A stretch of DNA of 39,518 nt from a virus, in the UHGV virus genome UHGV-0040088; one strand, 5' to 3'. Below the pieces are notes generated by a model, which ran no database searches, was not told the origin of the DNA, and saw nothing but the letters and a program-made list of their open reading frames with translations. How positions within the stretch are numbered: position 1 is the first letter of the stretch; each line of letters begins with the position of its first letter. Below, one piece after another: positions 14,422-21,305 of this stretch. The position numbers were made by a program, and so were the translations under genes.

Positions 14422-14718
14422 GTATGCCGCAAATCTGCATCTTGCTTCATCCAGGTCATGAATATCGTACACGTTATCGTAAATGTAAGTTGCGACCTGT
14501 GCTTTCTGTACGTCAGTTGCGTTCGGGAACTCCATGCTTACGAAAGTAACTGCATCAACGTAGTGTTTGAACATCTTTTTGTTAACGCACAGTGCGTAAA
14601 TCAATACAGCAGGCCAGCAAATCAGCGCACCAAAGAATGCCAGGAGCATATTAAGATGTTTTTTCTGAGCTACAACCATAGTTGCGATAAAGCCGATGAA
14701 GCAAATTACCAGTTCCAT
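14416..14718 (-). CDS. cassette A: small inner-membrane protein (100 aa, two predicted TM helices)
   Basis: AAGGGGTG SD; two hydrophobic segments (LVICFIGFIATMVV and LLAFFGALICWPAVLIYALCV) then a soluble tail. Confidence 0.55.
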   Translation of the reverse strand: MELVICFIGFIATMVVAQKKHLNMLLAFFGALICWPAVLIYALCVNKKMFKHYVDAVTFVSMEFPNATDVQKAQVATYIYDNVYDIHDLDEARCRFAAYK

Positions 14719-14728
14719 GATACACCCC

Positions 14729-14836
14729 TTAATTACGTTTGTCTTCGGTTGTCATTGCCAGCGCCAGTACAGCCATCACATTAAATGCTAACCATGCTGT
14801 AATATATACATCTATAACCGTTTTGATTGTTTCCAC
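14729..14836 (-). CDS. cassette A: possible 35-aa hydrophobic peptide (GTG start)
   Basis: Fills the gap between neighbouring genes; starts next to the upstream stop and its stop supplies the SD of the next gene. No ATG. Confidence 0.25.
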   Translation of the reverse strand: METIKTVIDVYITAWLAFNVMAVLALAMTTEDKRN

Positions 14837-15187
14837 TTATGCACCAGCCTTGATCCTGTTATGGATTGCGAACCCCTTAATTTCGCCGTCATGAATAACT
14901 TTGAGTACGTCAGGATCTTTTATTCCGTCAATCATATCTTTGTATTTTTCGTGGATCCTGTGTTTTTCTACAACCTCTTTATGTAGGAACGGTACTACCG
15001 CCTTATAATTGCACGCTGCGTTGTATATGACCTCCATGTACCCCATCCCTTCGCCGTATCTTATGTCGTATAGTTCTGCAGCAAATGCGCATTCACGTTC
15101 CGCTTTTTCAATCTTGTTATCTGCGTTCGCGTTGAATGCTAAACCAACCATTAACGCTACCATTGCCGCTTTGATTAACCGTTTCAT
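14837..15187 (-). CDS. cassette A: secreted (periplasmic) protein with cleavable signal peptide
   Basis: N-terminus MKRLIKAAMVALMVGLAFNANA-DN is a classic Sec signal with AxA site; mature part has two Cys; GAGCGGGGTGG SD. Confidence 0.6.
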   Translation of the reverse strand: MKRLIKAAMVALMVGLAFNANADNKIEKAERECAFAAELYDIRYGEGMGYMEVIYNAACNYKAVVPFLHKEVVEKHRIHEKYKDMIDGIKDPDVLKVIHDGEIKGFAIHNRIKAGA

Positions 15188-15199
15188 AATCCACCCCGC

Positions 15200-15286
15200 T
15201 CATTTCTTGTTTTTAAGTGCTTTCAGCATTTCTTCGATAAAGTCGGTATAGCGTTCATGCTCGTTGGGTCGGTAGTAGCCTTTCAT
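15200..15286 (-). CDS. cassette A: 28-aa leader ORF
   Basis: AAGAGGA SD then ATG; MKGYYRPNEHERYTDFIEEMLKALKNKK; its stop overlaps the SD of the secreted-protein gene. Confidence 0.35.
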   Translation of the reverse strand: MKGYYRPNEHERYTDFIEEMLKALKNKK

Positions 15287-15443
15287 TTTCTTATCCTCTT
15301 TTGCTTCCTCCGGTTAATCCGGCCTTTTAAGTCCCTTTACTCTATCCCTTTCCTTTAGCCTCTTTATACAAAATGGAGTCGTTATAGTAAAGACAATTTG
15401 TATAAAATAGAGATCTAGATCACACTTTTCATGAGGTTAAATC

Positions 15444-17792
15444 ATGGCAACTAGTTTAGGTACAATTTACTACGAAGTTGATGCAAAAACTGGTCAACTT
15501 CTCGTTGCTCAACGACAGGCAGACCAGGCTTTTGACAGCATCGAGCGTGGCGCAAAACGCGCTGACCGCCAGGTGAACACGCTTAAGACTTCAATCAAAG
15601 CGCTATCCAGGGTTATCCATTTGCTACTTGCTGCGGAGGCTGTACGCCAGTTTATTGACATGGCGGAGCAAGCGAAAATGCTTCGCGTAAAAATCAAAAT
15701 GCTTACTGGTGATACGGAGGCTGCCGGACGTGTTTTCGATGGCCTGAAAGAAATATCAAAAGAAACCGGGCAAAGCATGAAGGATACTGGCGAACTGTGG
15801 CAAGGCCTTGCTATATCGCTAAAAAACACATCCGCTACTGAAGGCCAATTGCTAAACCTGGTCGGTACGATTCAGAAAATGGGTGCATTAGGCGGAGCGT
15901 CAGCGGAACAGATGTCTAACTCTATGCGCCAGTTCCGCCAGTCTATAGACGGCGGCGTGCTGCGTGCTGAAGAGTTTAACAGTCTGCTTGAAAACACGCC
16001 AACCATCGTACAGACAATGGCTCGCCATATGGGGTTGTCAATGGGCCAGTTCCGCGCCGAAATGCTGGACGGCAAGATCACGGCTGAAAGGATGGTTAAC
16101 GCGATTCAGGCGGCTACACAGGAAACAAACGAGAAGTTCGCACAGTTGCCGCGCACATCCGGCATGGCCTTCAATGAGCTAAAAGTTGAGGTGATGGGAC
16201 TTGTCGAACAGCTTGACGATCTTTTCGGCATATCTGACGGCGTTGTGTCAGCAATAGACTTAATCACTGGCGGCGTTGAGGGATTAGGTAAGGGCGCAAA
16301 ATTCGCCGCAACATGTTTCAATACACTCAAAACCGCTGGTAGCGAGTTCATCGACATGTTTGACGATGTTGCTGTTAAGGCTGGCGAGGTTGCTGAAGAG
16401 ATTATCAGGATGGTAACGCCAATCAAGGCGCTAATGGATGGGTACAAATGGATGAAGGAGATCATTGACAAACGCAAGGAAGAGCTAAACAGCAACAACG
16501 AGAAGAAATTCGGCCCCACCATTGGCAAATTCATGACATTCAAGAATGACATAGAAAAAGCCACAGCCGCCTATGACGAGTTCATGCAGAAACAGGGTGA
16601 GGCTGACGATGGCAAGATCACCGGATTCGATCAGCCAGTTGGTAAGCCCAAAAAAGGCAAAAAGGGCAAAAATGACAAGAAATCTGAAGCTGATCGGCTT
16701 GGTGATGAAGGCATAAAAGTGTCCGACCAGTACAACAAGGACGCCGCCGCCATGCGTAAAGCGCTGGAGAACGGCAAGGCCATTGATGCTGCGTTCGCTC
16801 AGGGCAAAATAACCCTCCTTGAGTACAAGGCCGCGCAGAAAGGGATAGGCAAGGAGCTGAAGGACGAATTGGCGCAAATCCCTGTTGATGAGCTACGCGA
16901 CAAATGGGATCACATAGTCAGCCCGATGGATCAGCTTAAGGGAGAAATTGACCCAATCAAGCAGGCGCAAAATGAATGGGCCGTTCGAAAACAAATGCTG
17001 ATAGACCTTGGCGCTACAGAGGCGCAACAGAAACAGGCGCTATTGGAATACGAACAACAGATCAGAGATCTGAAATGGGAGCAATGGCAGGCGCAAAGCG
17101 AAACAAACGGCCTGATTGGTGCTTGCGTTAGTGGCCTGAAAGGTGGAATGGGCAACGCCCTTACCGGCCTACTAAACGGTACTCAATCGTTAAGCGAGGT
17201 TTTCGCCAACCTGGGAAGTAGCATACTTAACACTGTTGGCAACAAACTATCAGAAATTGCCGCCAACTGGATAGCAGATCAGTTGATGATGGAAACGCAA
17301 AGCAAGGCTACCCAGGCAAGTACAACGGCTGGCGCTGTTGCTGCCCAAGGCGAGATTGCGGCGGCGGCTATCCCGGCGGCGGCGGCAACGGCTGCGTCAA
17401 CTGGTGGTAGCTGGGCGGCGGCTGGTGCTGCGGCGCTTTCTGCGATCATGTCACTGGCAACGTCAATCTTTGGCGGCGGGCGTTATAATGGTGGCTCTGT
17501 TAATGGTGGTAGTCTGTATCGCGTAGGGGAACACGGGATTCCTGAGTTATTCCAGACTAGCAACGGGCGTCAGTATATGATTCCTGGCGAGAATGGTAGG
17601 GTAATTCCTGGTCGCGATCTCTTCAGTGGTGGCGGCATCAACATGCCTGTTAACATCACTGTCCAGACCACAAACGGATTTAGCGACGAAGACAGTCGCA
17701 GACTTGAACAGACGATGGAACGCGTCGCAATGAAAATGATGGCAAGGGAATCGCAACGGCCCGGAGGGATGTTACAACCTCGCAGGAAATAA
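15444..17792 (+). CDS. tail tape measure protein
   Basis: 782 aa, highly alpha-helical with a Gly/Ala-rich C-terminal region (GGGRYNGGSVNGGS); position upstream of M-L-K-I-J. Confidence 0.85.
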   Translation: MATSLGTIYYEVDAKTGQLLVAQRQADQAFDSIERGAKRADRQVNTLKTSIKALSRVIHLLLAAEAVRQFIDMAEQAKMLRVKIKMLTGDTEAAGRVFDGLKEISKETGQSMKDTGELWQGLAISLKNTSATEGQLLNLVGTIQKMGALGGASAEQMSNSMRQFRQSIDGGVLRAEEFNSLLENTPTIVQTMARHMGLSMGQFRAEMLDGKITAERMVNAIQAATQETNEKFAQLPRTSGMAFNELKVEVMGLVEQLDDLFGISDGVVSAIDLITGGVEGLGKGAKFAATCFNTLKTAGSEFIDMFDDVAVKAGEVAEEIIRMVTPIKALMDGYKWMKEIIDKRKEELNSNNEKKFGPTIGKFMTFKNDIEKATAAYDEFMQKQGEADDGKITGFDQPVGKPKKGKKGKNDKKSEADRLGDEGIKVSDQYNKDAAAMRKALENGKAIDAAFAQGKITLLEYKAAQKGIGKELKDELAQIPVDELRDKWDHIVSPMDQLKGEIDPIKQAQNEWAVRKQMLIDLGATEAQQKQALLEYEQQIRDLKWEQWQAQSETNGLIGACVSGLKGGMGNALTGLLNGTQSLSEVFANLGSSILNTVGNKLSEIAANWIADQLMMETQSKATQASTTAGAVAAQGEIAAAAIPAAAATAASTGGSWAAAGAAALSAIMSLATSIFGGGRYNGGSVNGGSLYRVGEHGIPELFQTSNGRQYMIPGENGRVIPGRDLFSGGGINMPVNITVQTTNGFSDEDSRRLEQTMERVAMKMMARESQRPGGMLQPRRK

Positions 17793-17796
17793 ACAA

Positions 17797-17826
17797 AACC
17801 CCGGTACAATGCCGGGGTTATCTTTC
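17797..17826. terminator. bidirectional terminator after tape measure gene
   Basis: Stem ccccgg/ccgggg flanked by an A-run and a T-rich run. Confidence 0.65.
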
Positions 17827-17936
17827 GTATTTATAACCGACCATTCCGCACGATATATCCTCTTCCGAAAATTACCTGTCAAATATTCCAGTTCCCCCCG
17901 CCTGGTGAATTTATCGTCATCCATATTTCACCTCAT

Positions 17937-18461
17937 TTATGTGCCATGATTAACACCATAATATTTTTCTTCTAAAAACATCCTGTAAGCTACTGCATCA
18001 CCGAAATCGTCAAAGTATTTATTGCTTTTTCTTTTTCCGTTCACAGCTATATACACCCTCCACTGCTCCCTAGACTTGCACCACGATACACCACGAAAAC
18101 CGCTAGTATTGTTTGACTTTATTTTCCCACTCCTTACGAAATCAGCACAGTTATCAACCTGATAACCTATGTTAAGGTTTTCTATTCTATCATCACCCCT
18201 TACGTCGTTAATGTGCCTTATTACATGCTCATCAGGTATCGGGCCGTGATGCATTACCCATATAACTTGATGTCTATAGTAATTTCTCTTTTTATACGTG
18301 AATATGTAGTAACCGTTTTTATTCCTGGCGCCCACCGGACCCGGTTTTCTTCTTCCTCCATTTTCACATATTAAAGTTTTCCAATATATGTTCCCTTCAC
18401 TGTATATAAACAAGTCATTCCAGTTTATGCTATTGACCATGTCGTGATTTATTTGTGACAT
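17937..18461 (-). CDS. HNH homing endonuclease (HNH plus AP2-like)
   Basis: Motifs HQVIWVMHHGPIP, RHINDVRGDDRIENL, FRGVSW..QWR; AT-rich relative to flanking tail genes. Confidence 0.85.
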   Translation of the reverse strand: MSQINHDMVNSINWNDLFIYSEGNIYWKTLICENGGRRKPGPVGARNKNGYYIFTYKKRNYYRHQVIWVMHHGPIPDEHVIRHINDVRGDDRIENLNIGYQVDNCADFVRSGKIKSNNTSGFRGVSWCKSREQWRVYIAVNGKRKSNKYFDDFGDAVAYRMFLEEKYYGVNHGT

Positions 18462-18703
18462 CCCTTAACCCCTGATAATTCATTAAATTTATGGTGCTCA
18501 ACTATTGCCCACACTTTTAGATCCTTGCTGTACACTCGCCAATCAAGGTTGGCACGGAATGCGTAGCCGTATCCGTCTTTCAGTTTTTTGGGTGCTACGT
18601 CTTTCCTCAAGAACGCGTCCAGAAGTTCTTTTGCTTTTTTGACTACATGATCAGGTGCGTTTTTCTGTGCTTTCAGATTTTTACCAATCGCTACCAATTT
18701 CAT
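18449..18703 (-). CDS. hypothetical protein (84 aa); faint RelE/ParE-like pattern
   Basis: GGGGTGGG SD; C-terminal pattern RANLDWRVYSKDLKVWAIVEHH loosely recalls RelE-family toxins; overlaps the HNH start by 13 nt. Confidence 0.45.
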   Translation of the reverse strand: MKLVAIGKNLKAQKNAPDHVVKKAKELLDAFLRKDVAPKKLKDGYGYAFRANLDWRVYSKDLKVWAIVEHHKFNELSGVKGCHK

Positions 18704-18721
18704 AACCCACCCCGCAATCCA

Positions 18722-18877
18722 TTAGTTGACCACTTTCAGGAAGAAATCACGGTACTCATTTTCCTTCGCGTTCATCATGAATTGACCGTATTTGAATGCG
18801 TCATCAAAGCCTTTGACTATCGCCACCTCCACCTGTTCGAATGCGTTGTTCAGCATTACCACTACATAACGCTTCAT
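18722..18877 (-). CDS. hypothetical small protein (51 aa)
   Basis: Perfect AAGGAGG SD; MKRYVVVMLNNAFEQVEVAIVKGFDDAFKYGQFMMNAKENEYRDFFLKVVN; its stop provides the SD of the 84-aa gene. Confidence 0.4.
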   Translation of the reverse strand: MKRYVVVMLNNAFEQVEVAIVKGFDDAFKYGQFMMNAKENEYRDFFLKVVN

Positions 18878-18918
18878 GTTGGCCTCCTTTGTCGGTACTG
18901 CTTTTTCTTCTTGCTTTC

Positions 18919-18947
18919 TATATACATCTTGTCACGCCATATGTGAA
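18919..18947 (-). promoter_or_regulatory. candidate sigma70 promoter for minus-strand cassette B
   Basis: On the minus strand: -35 TTCACA, 17-nt spacer, -10 TATATA, about 35 nt upstream of the 51-aa ORF. Confidence 0.4.
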
Positions 18948-19046
18948 GCCATTTTGTAAACTGGTTATAATTCTTGTGATGAATTTCTCATTTTTCGCGT
19001 AGGAGCGCGTAAAGATGTATGCAATATGTAACTTATAGGGGGAATC

Positions 19047-19400
19047 ATGCCGGAAGTTTTCAGATGGACGCCGCAAAGAAGCTACAGCGTGACCAGGGAA
19101 CCAAACGTATCTGTCATTAAACTTGGTGATGGGTATGAACAACGCCAGGCGAAAGGGATTAACACATTACTTGATAGTTACACCCTGGTTTTTAAAGGCA
19201 GTAGTGCAGGATGCGGCGATGGTGGGAATGTAGCAATCCAGGCGGAAGCATTCTTGAGGGCGCGCGGCGCGGTCGAGGCTTTTTACTGGTCGCCGTCGAT
19301 GGATAACGTGCAGAGGCTTTTTGTTTGTCGTAGCTGGAGTATGACCAAAGACGGGCCTGTGTATACGCTAAATGCAACATTTGAGCAAGTTATTAATTAG
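19047..19400 (+). CDS. M: minor tail protein M (lambda gpM-like)
   Basis: 117 aa; shares FRW, GDGYEQRQ and C-terminal FEQVIN with lambda gpM (recalled sequence FRWKV, GDGYSQR, FEQVVN). Confidence 0.85.
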   Translation: MPEVFRWTPQRSYSVTREPNVSVIKLGDGYEQRQAKGINTLLDSYTLVFKGSSAGCGDGGNVAIQAEAFLRARGAVEAFYWSPSMDNVQRLFVCRSWSMTKDGPVYTLNATFEQVIN

Positions 19401-19410
19401 GGGAGGGGAT

Positions 19411-19593
19411 ATGCCTTATTTTTGTGTAGTGGAGCGCACTGGCGCTTTTACATTATTCGCCGACTATGAAATTAATGATCTTACTGTCCGGGCTGATAAC
19501 GGTGAGACGTGGTATCTTCATGATATGGGTGATGGATATATCGGCTGTACGACTTGGGATGGCAAAGAAGTAGCATTTCTATCCTACGATTAA
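19411..19593 (+). CDS. hypothetical small protein (60 aa) inserted between M and L
   Basis: GGGGAGGGG SD before ATG 19411; followed by a terminator. Confidence 0.45.
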   Translation: MPYFCVVERTGAFTLFADYEINDLTVRADNGETWYLHDMGDGYIGCTTWDGKEVAFLSYD

Positions 19594-19623
19594 AAAAAAC
19601 ACCCCGCCACGGCGGGGTTTATA
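19593..19623. terminator. bidirectional terminator between 19411..19593 and minus-strand cassette C
   Basis: A7, stem ccccgc/gcgggg, then TTTAT. Confidence 0.65.
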
Positions 19624-19694
19624 GTGTCGATAGTAGAATGCATAACAATCCAATGATGATAATAATCATTTCTAGAACGTAATGTTCGCACATC

Positions 19695-19943
19695 TCATAA
19701 CGCACCCTTCAAATATGCCAATCCCTTATCGGTGACGAATGAATGGTTAACCTGGTTTTCATCCGTCATGATGATGAATAACTTTTCCTGTAGGTATTTC
19801 GCTTTCGGGTACAGCGTTAAACAGACCTGGTACAGTATCCCGCGCTCAATCAGCAAATCAATAAATTCGTGTTCATGATAACCGACGAGGCGGGCGGCCT
19901 GTTTCAACGTGTACACATAATCGCCGTGATTGCGCCGCCCCAT
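19695..19943 (-). CDS. cassette C: small putative HTH DNA-binding protein (82 aa)
   Basis: Segment YTLKQAARLVGYHEHEFIDLLIERGIL looks like a helix-turn-helix; AAGGCGG SD. Confidence 0.45.
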   Translation of the reverse strand: MGRRNHGDYVYTLKQAARLVGYHEHEFIDLLIERGILYQVCLTLYPKAKYLQEKLFIIMTDENQVNHSFVTDKGLAYLKGAL

Positions 19944-19952
19944 GTTGCCGCC

Positions 19953-20303
19953 TTATTTATCGAACGCAGACAAATTGTCGATACAGAAATCTTTTGCCGC
20001 TTTTTCGTATTCGCGTTTTGCTTGCGGATTGTCTGCCGGGAAACCTTTTGCGTGTATTTCACCAGGGCAAGCCTGATCCATAGAGTCGGCAAATTCAACA
20101 TTGACGTTAAAGTTAATATCTTTCGGGTTCATCTCTTCCACCTTATCCGGCACTTGCACCGGAATAACATAATAATCACGAGCACCAGACCAACAGCGGA
20201 GCAATTCACAACCTTCATTACGCGCTGATTCGAATGTGTCAAATAGTCCTATGCTTTCCCACTCACATTTATCAGTCCACACGTCTAATCTGTATTTTTG
20301 CAT
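19953..20303 (-). CDS. cassette C: hypothetical protein (about 117 aa)
   Basis: Start at MQKYR (20303) avoids overlap; alternative ATG at 20357 gives 134 aa. Several Cys; no recognised motif. Confidence 0.5.
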   Translation of the reverse strand: MQKYRLDVWTDKCEWESIGLFDTFESARNEGCELLRCWSGARDYYVIPVQVPDKVEEMNPKDINFNVNVEFADSMDQACPGEIHAKGFPADNPQAKREYEKAAKDFCIDNLSAFDK

Positions 20304-20316
20304 TTTTGTTAACCTT

Positions 20317-20472
20317 TCATTTGGCAGGTTCGATCCTGTATCCCAAAACGCGGTCATCTTCAGTAAGTAAAAGCGCGTCAGTCAGTGCCTCGCCTTCGTC
20401 TTTATACAGAGCCACAGTCATTTCCCTGCCGCCTGACAGGAATACCGTCAACCTCCACACCTTATCATCCAT
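20317..20472 (-). CDS. cassette C: hypothetical small acidic protein (51 aa)
   Basis: GGAGGTG SD before ATG 20472; MDDKVWRLTVFLSGGREMTVALYKDEGEALTDALLLTEDDRVLGYRIEPAK. Confidence 0.4.
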   Translation of the reverse strand: MDDKVWRLTVFLSGGREMTVALYKDEGEALTDALLLTEDDRVLGYRIEPAK

Positions 20473-20518
20473 ATCACACCTCCGCGCCATTTTGTTAACC
20501 ATGCTTACTTTTGAGTAC

Positions 20519-20547
20519 AATATACATATTGTAAAAATCGCTATCAA
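20519..20547 (-). promoter_or_regulatory. candidate sigma70 promoter for minus-strand cassette C
   Basis: On the minus strand: -35 TTGATA, 17-nt spacer, -10 TATATT, about 40 nt upstream of the 51-aa ORF. Confidence 0.45.
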
Positions 20548-20553
20548 CCGTTT

Positions 20554-20562
20554 TGGTATGAT
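20554..20562 (+). promoter_or_regulatory. candidate extended -10 promoter (TGgTATGAT) upstream of gene L
   Basis: TG-n-TATGAT 39 nt upstream of the L start; back-to-back with the cassette C promoter. Confidence 0.3.
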
Positions 20563-20600
20563 TTAGCGTGACGGCGATCACAAAATGACAAGGTGAAAAA

Positions 20601-21305
20601 ATGCGCAGCATACCTACAGAAATGATTATTGATTCCGTCGATGCCGGAGTCGGCGCGGTAATTGATTTGTTTGAATTAGACCTCACGCCCCTGGGTGGCG
20701 AGGTTATCCGCTTCCATTCCGGCGCGAATGGTTATTACGGCCCGGTTATCTGGAAGGGAGTGACTTACAACAGCTACCCAATCGAGGCTACTGGCTTCGA
20801 AATGAAAAACGAAGGTGTTTACTCGCGCCCGCAAATGGTAGTAGCCAACATTGGCGGGCTAATCACCGGGATGAACAACGATTTTAACGACCTGCGAGGA
20901 ATGAAGGTTACGCGCCGCCAGGTGGAAGTAAAATACCTGGACGCTGTTAACTTCCCCAACGGCAATCCAGATGCAGATCCATCTATTGAGGCTGTATCTT
21001 TTTACGTCGTTGAGACGATGAGCGAAGAAACAGCCGACCAGGTGCAATATGAACTGTCAACGCCAATTGATGCTGACAAGGCGGTTATCCCCGGGCGCAC
21101 AATTCTCGCTGACGTTTGCCAGTGGCAATATCGCGGCGACGGTTGCAGATACAGTGGCGGCCCCGTAGCTACTGACAAAGACGAGCTAACCAGTGATCCG
21201 AAGCTGGATAAATGCAGCCACCGCCTAAGCGGTTGCCGTTTGCGTTTTCCGCGCCCTAATCCGTTACCAATTTCCTGTTTCCCTGGATCCAGCAAGGTGG
21301 GTTGA
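20601..21305 (+). CDS. L: minor tail protein L (lambda gpL-like)
   Basis: 234 aa; C-terminal Cys cluster (CQWQYRGDGCRYSGG...CSHRLSGC) as in gpL; position M-L-K-I-J. Confidence 0.85.
   Translation: MRSIPTEMIIDSVDAGVGAVIDLFELDLTPLGGEVIRFHSGANGYYGPVIWKGVTYNSYPIEATGFEMKNEGVYSRPQMVVANIGGLITGMNNDFNDLRGMKVTRRQVEVKYLDAVNFPNGNPDADPSIEAVSFYVVETMSEETADQVQYELSTPIDADKAVIPGRTILADVCQWQYRGDGCRYSGGPVATDKDELTSDPKLDKCSHRLSGCRLRFPRPNPLPISCFPGSSKVG

Follow-up and report, generated by a model that had tools for sequence, protein, structure and literature searches.

The tail gene region of the virus genome UHGV-0040088, analysed here as one stretch of 39,518 nucleotides (nt; the window), holds a minus-strand cassette between the tape measure gene and the minor tail gene M, which raises the question of what kind of unit this cassette is. 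It encodes a protein of 51 amino acids (aa), named p51 here, a protein of 84 aa, p84, and an HNH endonuclease, and an initial annotation had faintly likened the two small genes to a RelE/ParE toxin-antitoxin (TA) pair which the HNH gene may have carried as cargo. Comparison with about 55 related loci that hold the p51-p84 pair favours another explanation, to which we give a probability of about 0.5, namely an accessory operon ("moron") with a solitary p84 effector, a separate p51 and an HNH gene that arrived later. The three open reading frames (ORFs) were all found on the minus strand where the initial annotation had placed them (Table 1); it had overlooked a fourth small ORF and an intrinsic terminator that close the unit.

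Both p51 and p84 are, judging from their substitution patterns, real genes under strong purifying selection, the median pairwise ratio of nonsynonymous to synonymous substitution rates (dN/dS) being 0.045 for p51 and 0.072 for p84 across the related loci, so that their initial reading as coding ORFs holds. The pair does not appear to be obligate, as p51 has been lost or broken in at least four independent events with p84 kept at full length. One of these null alleles is a precise deletion fusing the p51 ribosome-binding site (RBS) to the p84 start (loci L045 and L048 and the complete genome of Escherichia coli UMNK88), and the others are a +1 frameshift in p51 (L009, isolate assembly GCA_003357765.1), the nonsense change Q32* (L063, a 178-kb contig) and a -1 frameshift (L064). 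In these alleles p84 is kept behind the same promoter region and RBS. A p51-specific DNA pattern had no match elsewhere on the contigs of the deletion lineage, and in a p51-anchored pattern scan 13 of 51 matches were chance 17-mers. Truncation of p84 was seen in about 12 of 47 clusters, which sets p51-null against p84-null alleles at 4-5 to about 12, a ratio close to that of the gene lengths and only semi-quantitative, as cluster counts are not independent events. At this semi-quantitative level there would be no deficit of "antitoxin" loss, and the strong asymmetry expected from a lethal loss of the antitoxin is not seen.

Other comparisons point the same way. No co-variation between p51 and p84 alleles was found in the about 55 loci, p51 alleles and p84 types assorting freely, and of the two proteins it is p51 that varies less (76-98% identity among relatives, with 60% in one frameshifted relative, versus 58-89% for p84). 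Moreover, no p51 homologue was found beside the genes of the p84 family, Pfam PF24732, in the other phages examined, whether lytic (Sortsne, KMB41, the N4-like PhiImVa-1 and the 140-kb contigs described below) or temperate (OS31, ENT39118, phi467 and a Klebsiella lambdoid phage, where the gene lies next to kil). The neighbours of PF24732 genes vary in these genomes and include a ParB-like gene, kil, repressor or antirepressor genes, lysis genes and N4-like early genes. Taken together, comparative genomics argues against an obligate toxin-antitoxin pair and leaves the initial TA reading of the two small genes weak.

The resemblance of p84 to RelE/ParE proteins, on the other hand, turned out to be more than faint. 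In the HMM (hidden Markov model) check, p84 matched PF24732 ParE_like with 34.4 bits against a gathering threshold of 24.4 (E 2.3e-8), its residues 19-74 aligning to profile positions 2-66 of 67, and the same family was matched by 17 of 17 full-length close relatives and by 5 distant ones. Many relatives bear the RefSeq/PGAP name "ParE family toxin-like protein", and in PHROG, where its function label is unknown, the protein is phrog_1525. Comparison with solved structures gave less: phmmer and hmmsearch of p84 against the PDB returned no RelE/ParE match at E up to 10, the PF24732 alignment compared by hhalign with a RelE alignment reached a non-significant probability of 0.5% (E 0.11) in a plausible register, and hhalign against RK2 ParE gave no match. 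The AlphaFold2 model of p84 is poor (predicted local distance difference test, pLDDT, 61), with an order of secondary-structure elements compatible with the RelE/ParE fold, in which beta-alpha-alpha precedes an antiparallel sheet. NCBIfam and PADLOC gave no family for any of the four cassette ORFs. An exhaustive HMM search of 1.84 billion representatives gave 9 p84-family clusters at E up to 0.001, and the family reachable by such a search is small; with tblastn, proteins of the PF24732 type turned up in many phages of enterobacteria and Vibrio, and the P0109 scan of viral contigs gave no match. Within the family, residues R56 and H70 do not vary at all, and K40, W65 and N74 hardly do. The invariant pair, together with K40 and N74, would be more in keeping with a nuclease site of RelE/YoeB type than with a gyrase poison of ParE type.

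Two further observations concern p84. A relative of 88 aa (51% identity) is encoded on the viral contigs of about 140 kb L057 (3001-3267) and L058, in a same-strand array of small genes with a 69-aa Lys/Ala-rich ORF before it, an 85-aa ORF after it and no p51. A mosaic (recombination) boundary also lies within p84 near codon 17 (about 18655): codons 1-16 travel with p51 and M at 87% mean nucleotide identity and codons 17-84 stand at 73%. Upstream of this boundary, p51 and M included, relatives are 85-94% identical, and beyond it the p84 alleles separate into two or more deeply diverged types, YAFRAN and YKFDIN/YKMDIN.

The p51 protein falls in phrog_29810 (E 1.8e-36), which bears the PHROG function label unknown, and had no Pfam, NCBIfam, PADLOC or PDB match. 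AlphaFold2 models it as a single long helix (pLDDT 85, predicted template modelling score 0.43), no DNA-binding domain was found in it with Pfam or NCBIfam, and the minimal cassettes hold no third regulator gene. Gene calls of 68-89 aa with N-terminal extensions were rejected as artefacts, as sequence and frame differ among them; they originate from an ATG inside the -10 region, which is out of frame in the window. A read-through or fusion product was likewise ruled out. In the window, p51 and p84 share a reading frame and are separated by TAA and six codons, but start-to-start distances of 173-179 nt among relatives do not keep the frame, and the shared frame is, by this comparison, coincidental.

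The third gene of the cassette encodes an endonuclease matching PF13392 HNH_3 with 51.8 bits (cut-off 24.8) and AP2 below threshold (21.2 versus 33.3 bits), and is assigned to phrog_99 (E 1.2e-41). It is AT-rich, as first described, the G+C fraction of its stretch (18001-18500) being 0.38 compared with about 0.47-0.50 around it and 0.46-0.55 in the flanks; for the cassette, 0.38-0.42 stands against the same 0.46-0.55. The HNH start overlaps the p84 end by 13 nt. The phage homing endonucleases to which it belongs form a very large family; matches were found in 874 records, the best phage relatives being at most 42% identical. The initial annotation had asked whether related phages carry the HNH gene alone or the full unit at this junction: the pair is present in the about 55 loci, and an HNH gene stands at the p84-stop site in only 4 of about 57, where it is 32-36% identical to that of the window. 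The pair is thus constant and the HNH gene sporadic, and E. coli N921, LSU61 and 2-331 have a minimal cassette consisting of the pair and the terminator without HNH, which refutes the idea that the HNH gene carried the pair as cargo.

Alignment with the HNH-less LSU61 locates the insertion. Homology ends at ...TG(T/C)CA(C/T)AA, in the last p84 codons, and resumes at TGAGG(T/C)G directly 3' of the HNH stop, the HNH-less target of LSU61 type reading ...GGTTGCCATAAGTGAGGCGG.... Because homology breaks and resumes at these two points, the insert is essentially a bare ORF of 525 bp placed at the p84 stop codon, a later arrival in the cassette. The p84-stop site may have been colonised by different HNH lineages, or its HNH genes may have diverged far from each other. 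HNH_3 genes were seen at other sites as well: one of about 157 aa lies between M and p51, on the strand of M, in L010 (2182-2655), L034 and L186, and another lies beyond M in L012 (1300-1716), so that at least three HNH insertion sites, including the p84-stop site, cluster around the cassette. This is the pattern left by free-standing homing endonucleases that colonise a hot spot.

Variation of the cassette is confined to its distal part. Between the p84 stop and the tape measure stop lie 89 to 1479 bp, depending on the relative, with differing cargo, whereas the p51-p84 core is nearly fixed. The overlooked fourth ORF lies in this distal part, runs through the terminator and had no Pfam or PHROG match. 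It differs by a 1-nt indel from the frame of LSU61 and L045, and relatives have an ORF of about 30 aa ("M-DDKFTWREIWNIW..."), of which the 50-aa ORF of the window is a frameshifted remnant.

The signals ahead of the genes were compared in the same relatives. The promoter described in the initial annotation, TTCACA and TATATA at a spacing of 17 nt, is present, but its designation as near-consensus was overstated: it matches 9 of 12 consensus positions, TATATA agrees with TATAAT at 4 of 6 and is devoid of the near-universal -7 T (the last -10 position), the promoter scanner gave no call for the site, and promoter-like sites in 14500-21000 are not above shuffles (7 found versus 10.8 expected). 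Its conservation speaks in its favour. The -35 hexamer is TTCACA in 10 aligned relatives and TTCACT in L045, L048 and UMNK88, the -10 hexamer is TATATA or, in some relatives, TATACA, and in the L045/L048/UMNK88 lineage TTCACT-17 nt-TATACA is kept even though most spacer positions have changed. The 169-bp p51/M intergenic region as a whole is one of the most conserved parts of the locus and, in the alignment, more conserved than the body of p84. A sigma70-type promoter ahead of p51 is, on this pattern of conservation, likely. The AAGGAGG reported for p51 was confirmed 5 nt 5' of its ATG (AAGGGGG in some relatives). As for the "coupled" p84, it does lie close to p51, but it starts 18 nt 3' of the p51 stop, with its own RBS (GGGGTGG) and no overlap, which makes the term a loose one.

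At the other end, the terminator hairpin is G+C-rich (-18 kcal/mol, z -2.0) and is followed by a T-run, TTGTTTATTT, on the minus strand only; since its plus-strand side has no T-run, late transcription can pass. It is conserved in most relatives, some of which have a different terminator hairpin at the same place, and Rfam gave sub-threshold noise in 17600-19200, at the terminator only. As to the origin of the stretch, the region matches mEp010, mEp044, mEp554, mEp515, mEp013, mEp021 and MagusPhagus at 86-92% identity, by which the stretch is identified as a temperate coliphage or prophage of the mEp021 type (mEpimmI). Prophage matches to the region occur in 35 of 5,426 complete E. coli genomes, and all of the p51-containing E. 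coli genome matches (34/34) span about 18650-19392.

Table 1. Coordinates of the cassette features and flanking genes in the 39,518-nt window
Feature	Position	Strand	Remarks
Tape measure gene	15444-17792	+	PF20155
Decayed small ORF	17772-17924	-	50 aa here, about 30 aa in relatives; remnant
Intrinsic terminator hairpin	17797-17819	both strands	bidirectional; shared with the end of the tape measure gene
HNH gene	17937-18461	-	HNH_3 and weak AP2; free-standing homing-endonuclease type (predicted)
p84	18449-18703	-	84-aa ORF, PF24732 ParE_like
p84 junction/start context GCGGGGTGGGTTATGAAA	18698-18715	-	18-mer; second copy at 15182-15199
p51	18722-18877	-	51-aa ORF, phrog_29810
Divergent p51/M intergenic region	18878-19046	.	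highly conserved; alignment of relatives
Shine-Dalgarno AAGGAGG of p51	18883-18889	-	read from sequence
-10-like hexamer TATATA	18919-18924	-	read from sequence
-35-like hexamer TTCACA	18942-18947	-	read from sequence
Minor tail gene M	19047-19400	+	PF05939

Neighbouring minus-strand cassettes occur on both sides. The one just upstream of the tape measure gene starts with a 28-aa lead ORF (MKGYYRPNEHERYTDFIEEMLKALKNKK, about 15199-15285), followed by a 116-aa protein (14837-15187) with an N-terminal signal peptide, in a position analogous to that of the HK97 gp15 moron. The 18-nt GCGGGGTGGRTTATGAAA occurs exactly twice in the window, on the minus strand at 15182-15199 and 18698-18715 (chance 0.01), each copy lying at the start of the second gene of its cassette, that is the 116-aa ORF and p84. 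The LKAL-coding bases before it are also common to frequent p51 alleles, and it appears that the lead-ORF end and the junction form a module present in both cassettes; by BLASTP, p51 and the 28-aa lead ORF have no similarity. A third cassette (19601-20547), between M and L, has a promoter-like site that is the region's best (TTGATA, 17 nt, TATATT; 10 of 12 positions), a 51-aa lead ORF (20317-20472) without similarity to p51, a 134-aa ORF and an 82-aa protein named "antirepressor KilAC domain-containing" by RefSeq in relatives, and ends at a strong terminator (19601-19618). Right after M on the plus strand lies a small conserved late gene, the 61-73-aa ORF at 19372-19593, which is annotated as hypothetical in all relatives; the terminator that comes after it also serves the third cassette.

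In the explanation preferred here, the cassette would be an accessory unit transcribed against the late tail operon and ended by a bidirectional terminator, with a layout running from a sigma70-like promoter region and a strong RBS through p51, p84 and variable cargo to that terminator. Its constant core is p51 and p84, the HNH gene being a later insertion and the fourth ORF a decayed remnant. p84 would be a solitary phage-type effector of RelE/ParE fold that probably acts on host translation or mRNA, like its relatives among the early or accessory genes of lytic and lambdoid phages, and that the host may tolerate without a dedicated antitoxin. p51 would be a small helical protein in its own right that perhaps modulates p84 or the expression of the cassette, and not an indispensable antidote. 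A broader proposal, which we regard as rather unlikely, is that PF24732 as a whole might be a phage-specific, antitoxin-independent branch of the RelE/ParE fold, used by enterobacterial phages, lytic as well as temperate, as early host-takeover nucleases or as decoys against TA-based abortive infection, with p51 as a lineage-specific, non-essential modulator in mEp021-type phages.

Some points weigh against the solitary-effector explanation and have to be set beside the alternatives. Every complete p51 locus has a downstream p84, mostly intact, and the two genes are almost always adjacent, a linkage seen within one phage lineage that may reflect common descent. A small helical protein followed by a toxin-fold protein, with a strong and then a weaker RBS, is the minimal TA layout, and p51-null lysogens could survive through a silent promoter, a weak toxin or an unseen compensating change. 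The nuclease activity suggested for p84 is, in addition, read from conserved residues alone, and the paper on mEpimmI phages (PMC11893012) does not treat the cassette. One alternative is the reading of the cassette as a minimal type II TA system, in which p51 would be a PaaA2-like antitoxin and p84 a ParE/RelE toxin serving prophage stabilisation or the abortion of superinfection. Gene order and spacing, the Pfam match of p84, the all-helical prediction for p51, the tight linkage within the phage group and the presence of the unit's own promoter-like site and terminator would all agree with it, and unusual antitoxins have been described for ParE systems of prophages (PMC8630535, PMC8706911). 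Set against this are the four independent p51-null alleles with intact p84, sequenced living isolates among them, the lack of any shortfall of "antitoxin" loss against "toxin" loss, the free assortment of alleles, and the stronger conservation of p51, whereas antitoxins usually evolve faster. The other PF24732 members examined stand without a p51 homologue, PADLOC gave no match, and p51 has neither a DNA-binding domain nor a third regulator gene beside it, a feature that is not universal, as PaaA2 has no such domain either. On balance the TA reading is doubtful.

The tolerance of p84 without a partner would also be expected if it were a non-toxic decoy or inhibitor directed against host TA or abortive-infection defences, one that might, for instance, tie up an antitoxin or toxin partner of the host or occupy the target of a toxin, with p51 as an unrelated accessory protein. 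Strictly lytic phages, to which an addiction module would be of no use, commonly carry PF24732 members, and PHROG lists the family as of unknown function, not as a toxin; this alternative is, however, pure inference, and the invariant Arg and His suggest an active site and not a passive decoy, so that we consider it improbable. Still less credit is given to the possibility that p51 and the junction form a generic expression leader for translational coupling or regulation, with p84 as one of several interchangeable cargos. It would account for the recurrence of the 18-nt junction and the preceding LKAL-coding bases before an unrelated, secreted 116-aa protein upstream of the tape measure gene, and for the mosaic boundary inside p84 at codon 17, but the selection on the amino-acid sequence of p51 is that of a functional protein, the junction is seen in two instances only, and the lead ORF of the other cassette is of another length and shows no BLASTP similarity. 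This last alternative is therefore most improbable, and the accessory operon with a solitary p84 is retained.

The cassette is, in this light, a fairly ordinary accessory operon with a conserved core and not a clear TA pair. Current understanding is not overturned by it: the ParE-like label (Pfam, RefSeq), HNH homing endonucleases and tail-region morons are already known. What is new is modest, namely that the fixed core is the pair and not the HNH gene, that the supposed antitoxin p51 is dispensable in nature, and that PF24732 is typically partner-less in phages; no paper mentioning PF24732 was found in a literature search. mEpimmI phages have been reported to be prevalent in human gut E. coli (PMC11893012), and a core pair fixed across the group probably matters for the fitness of the phage or the lysogen. 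If p84 is indeed an active RelE/ParE-type effector without need of an antitoxin, a toxin fold usually read as part of a TA system would often be a stand-alone tool of phage infection, and names assigned automatically, "ParE family toxin-like" among them, could not be relied on as signs of an addiction or defence module. The locus also illustrates layered mobile DNA, with a homing endonuclease in an accessory operon in a tail operon.

Among known systems, the nearest in appearance is found on the cryptic prophage CP-933P of E. coli O157:H7, whose ParE2 belongs to the classical ParE family. In its PaaR2-PaaA2-ParE2 system, the antitoxin is a small helical protein without a DNA-binding domain (PMC8630535). 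Like PaaA2-ParE2, the cassette is prophage-borne and has a small helical protein upstream of a ParE-family protein (a toxin of about 90 aa there). The known system has a third regulator and demonstrated toxicity and neutralisation, whereas the cassette has no regulator gene; p84 belongs to PF24732, without detectable similarity to solved ParE/RelE proteins, and p51 is dispensable in nature. ParESO-CopASO of CP4So in Shewanella (PMC8706911) and PfiAT of Pf4 (PMC13048266), which affect prophage maintenance or production, likewise combine a prophage-encoded member of the ParE/RelE superfamily with an adjacent small partner. Their antitoxins, however, are required and bind DNA, for which p51 has no domain.

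The HK97 gp15 moron is located between tail genes. The cassette resembles it as an independent unit in such a position, with a promoter-like site and a terminator, a lower G+C content and variable content, in keeping with the phage moron concept (PMC3594210). HK97 gp15 is a membrane superinfection-exclusion protein, whereas the core here consists of a cytoplasmic ParE-like protein and a 51-aa helical protein, and, unlike the HK97 moron, this core is fixed throughout the phage group, with variation limited to the distal cargo. The HNH gene resembles the free-standing HNH_3/AP2 homing endonucleases of phages in its PF13392 domain, AT-richness, sporadic distribution, bare ORF and start overlapping the upstream gene; it differs from them in its sub-threshold AP2 match, and its cleavage and homing are predicted activities. 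For p84, finally, the closest parallel may be T4 RegB, reportedly (Odaert and colleagues, in 2007) a RelE/YoeB-like endoribonuclease without antitoxin. RegB is about 150 aa long against 84 and has no sequence relationship to p84, whose RNase activity is putative; as a working model for PF24732, nonetheless, it offers the analogy of a solitary phage protein of RelE-type fold that would be used in infection and not in addiction.

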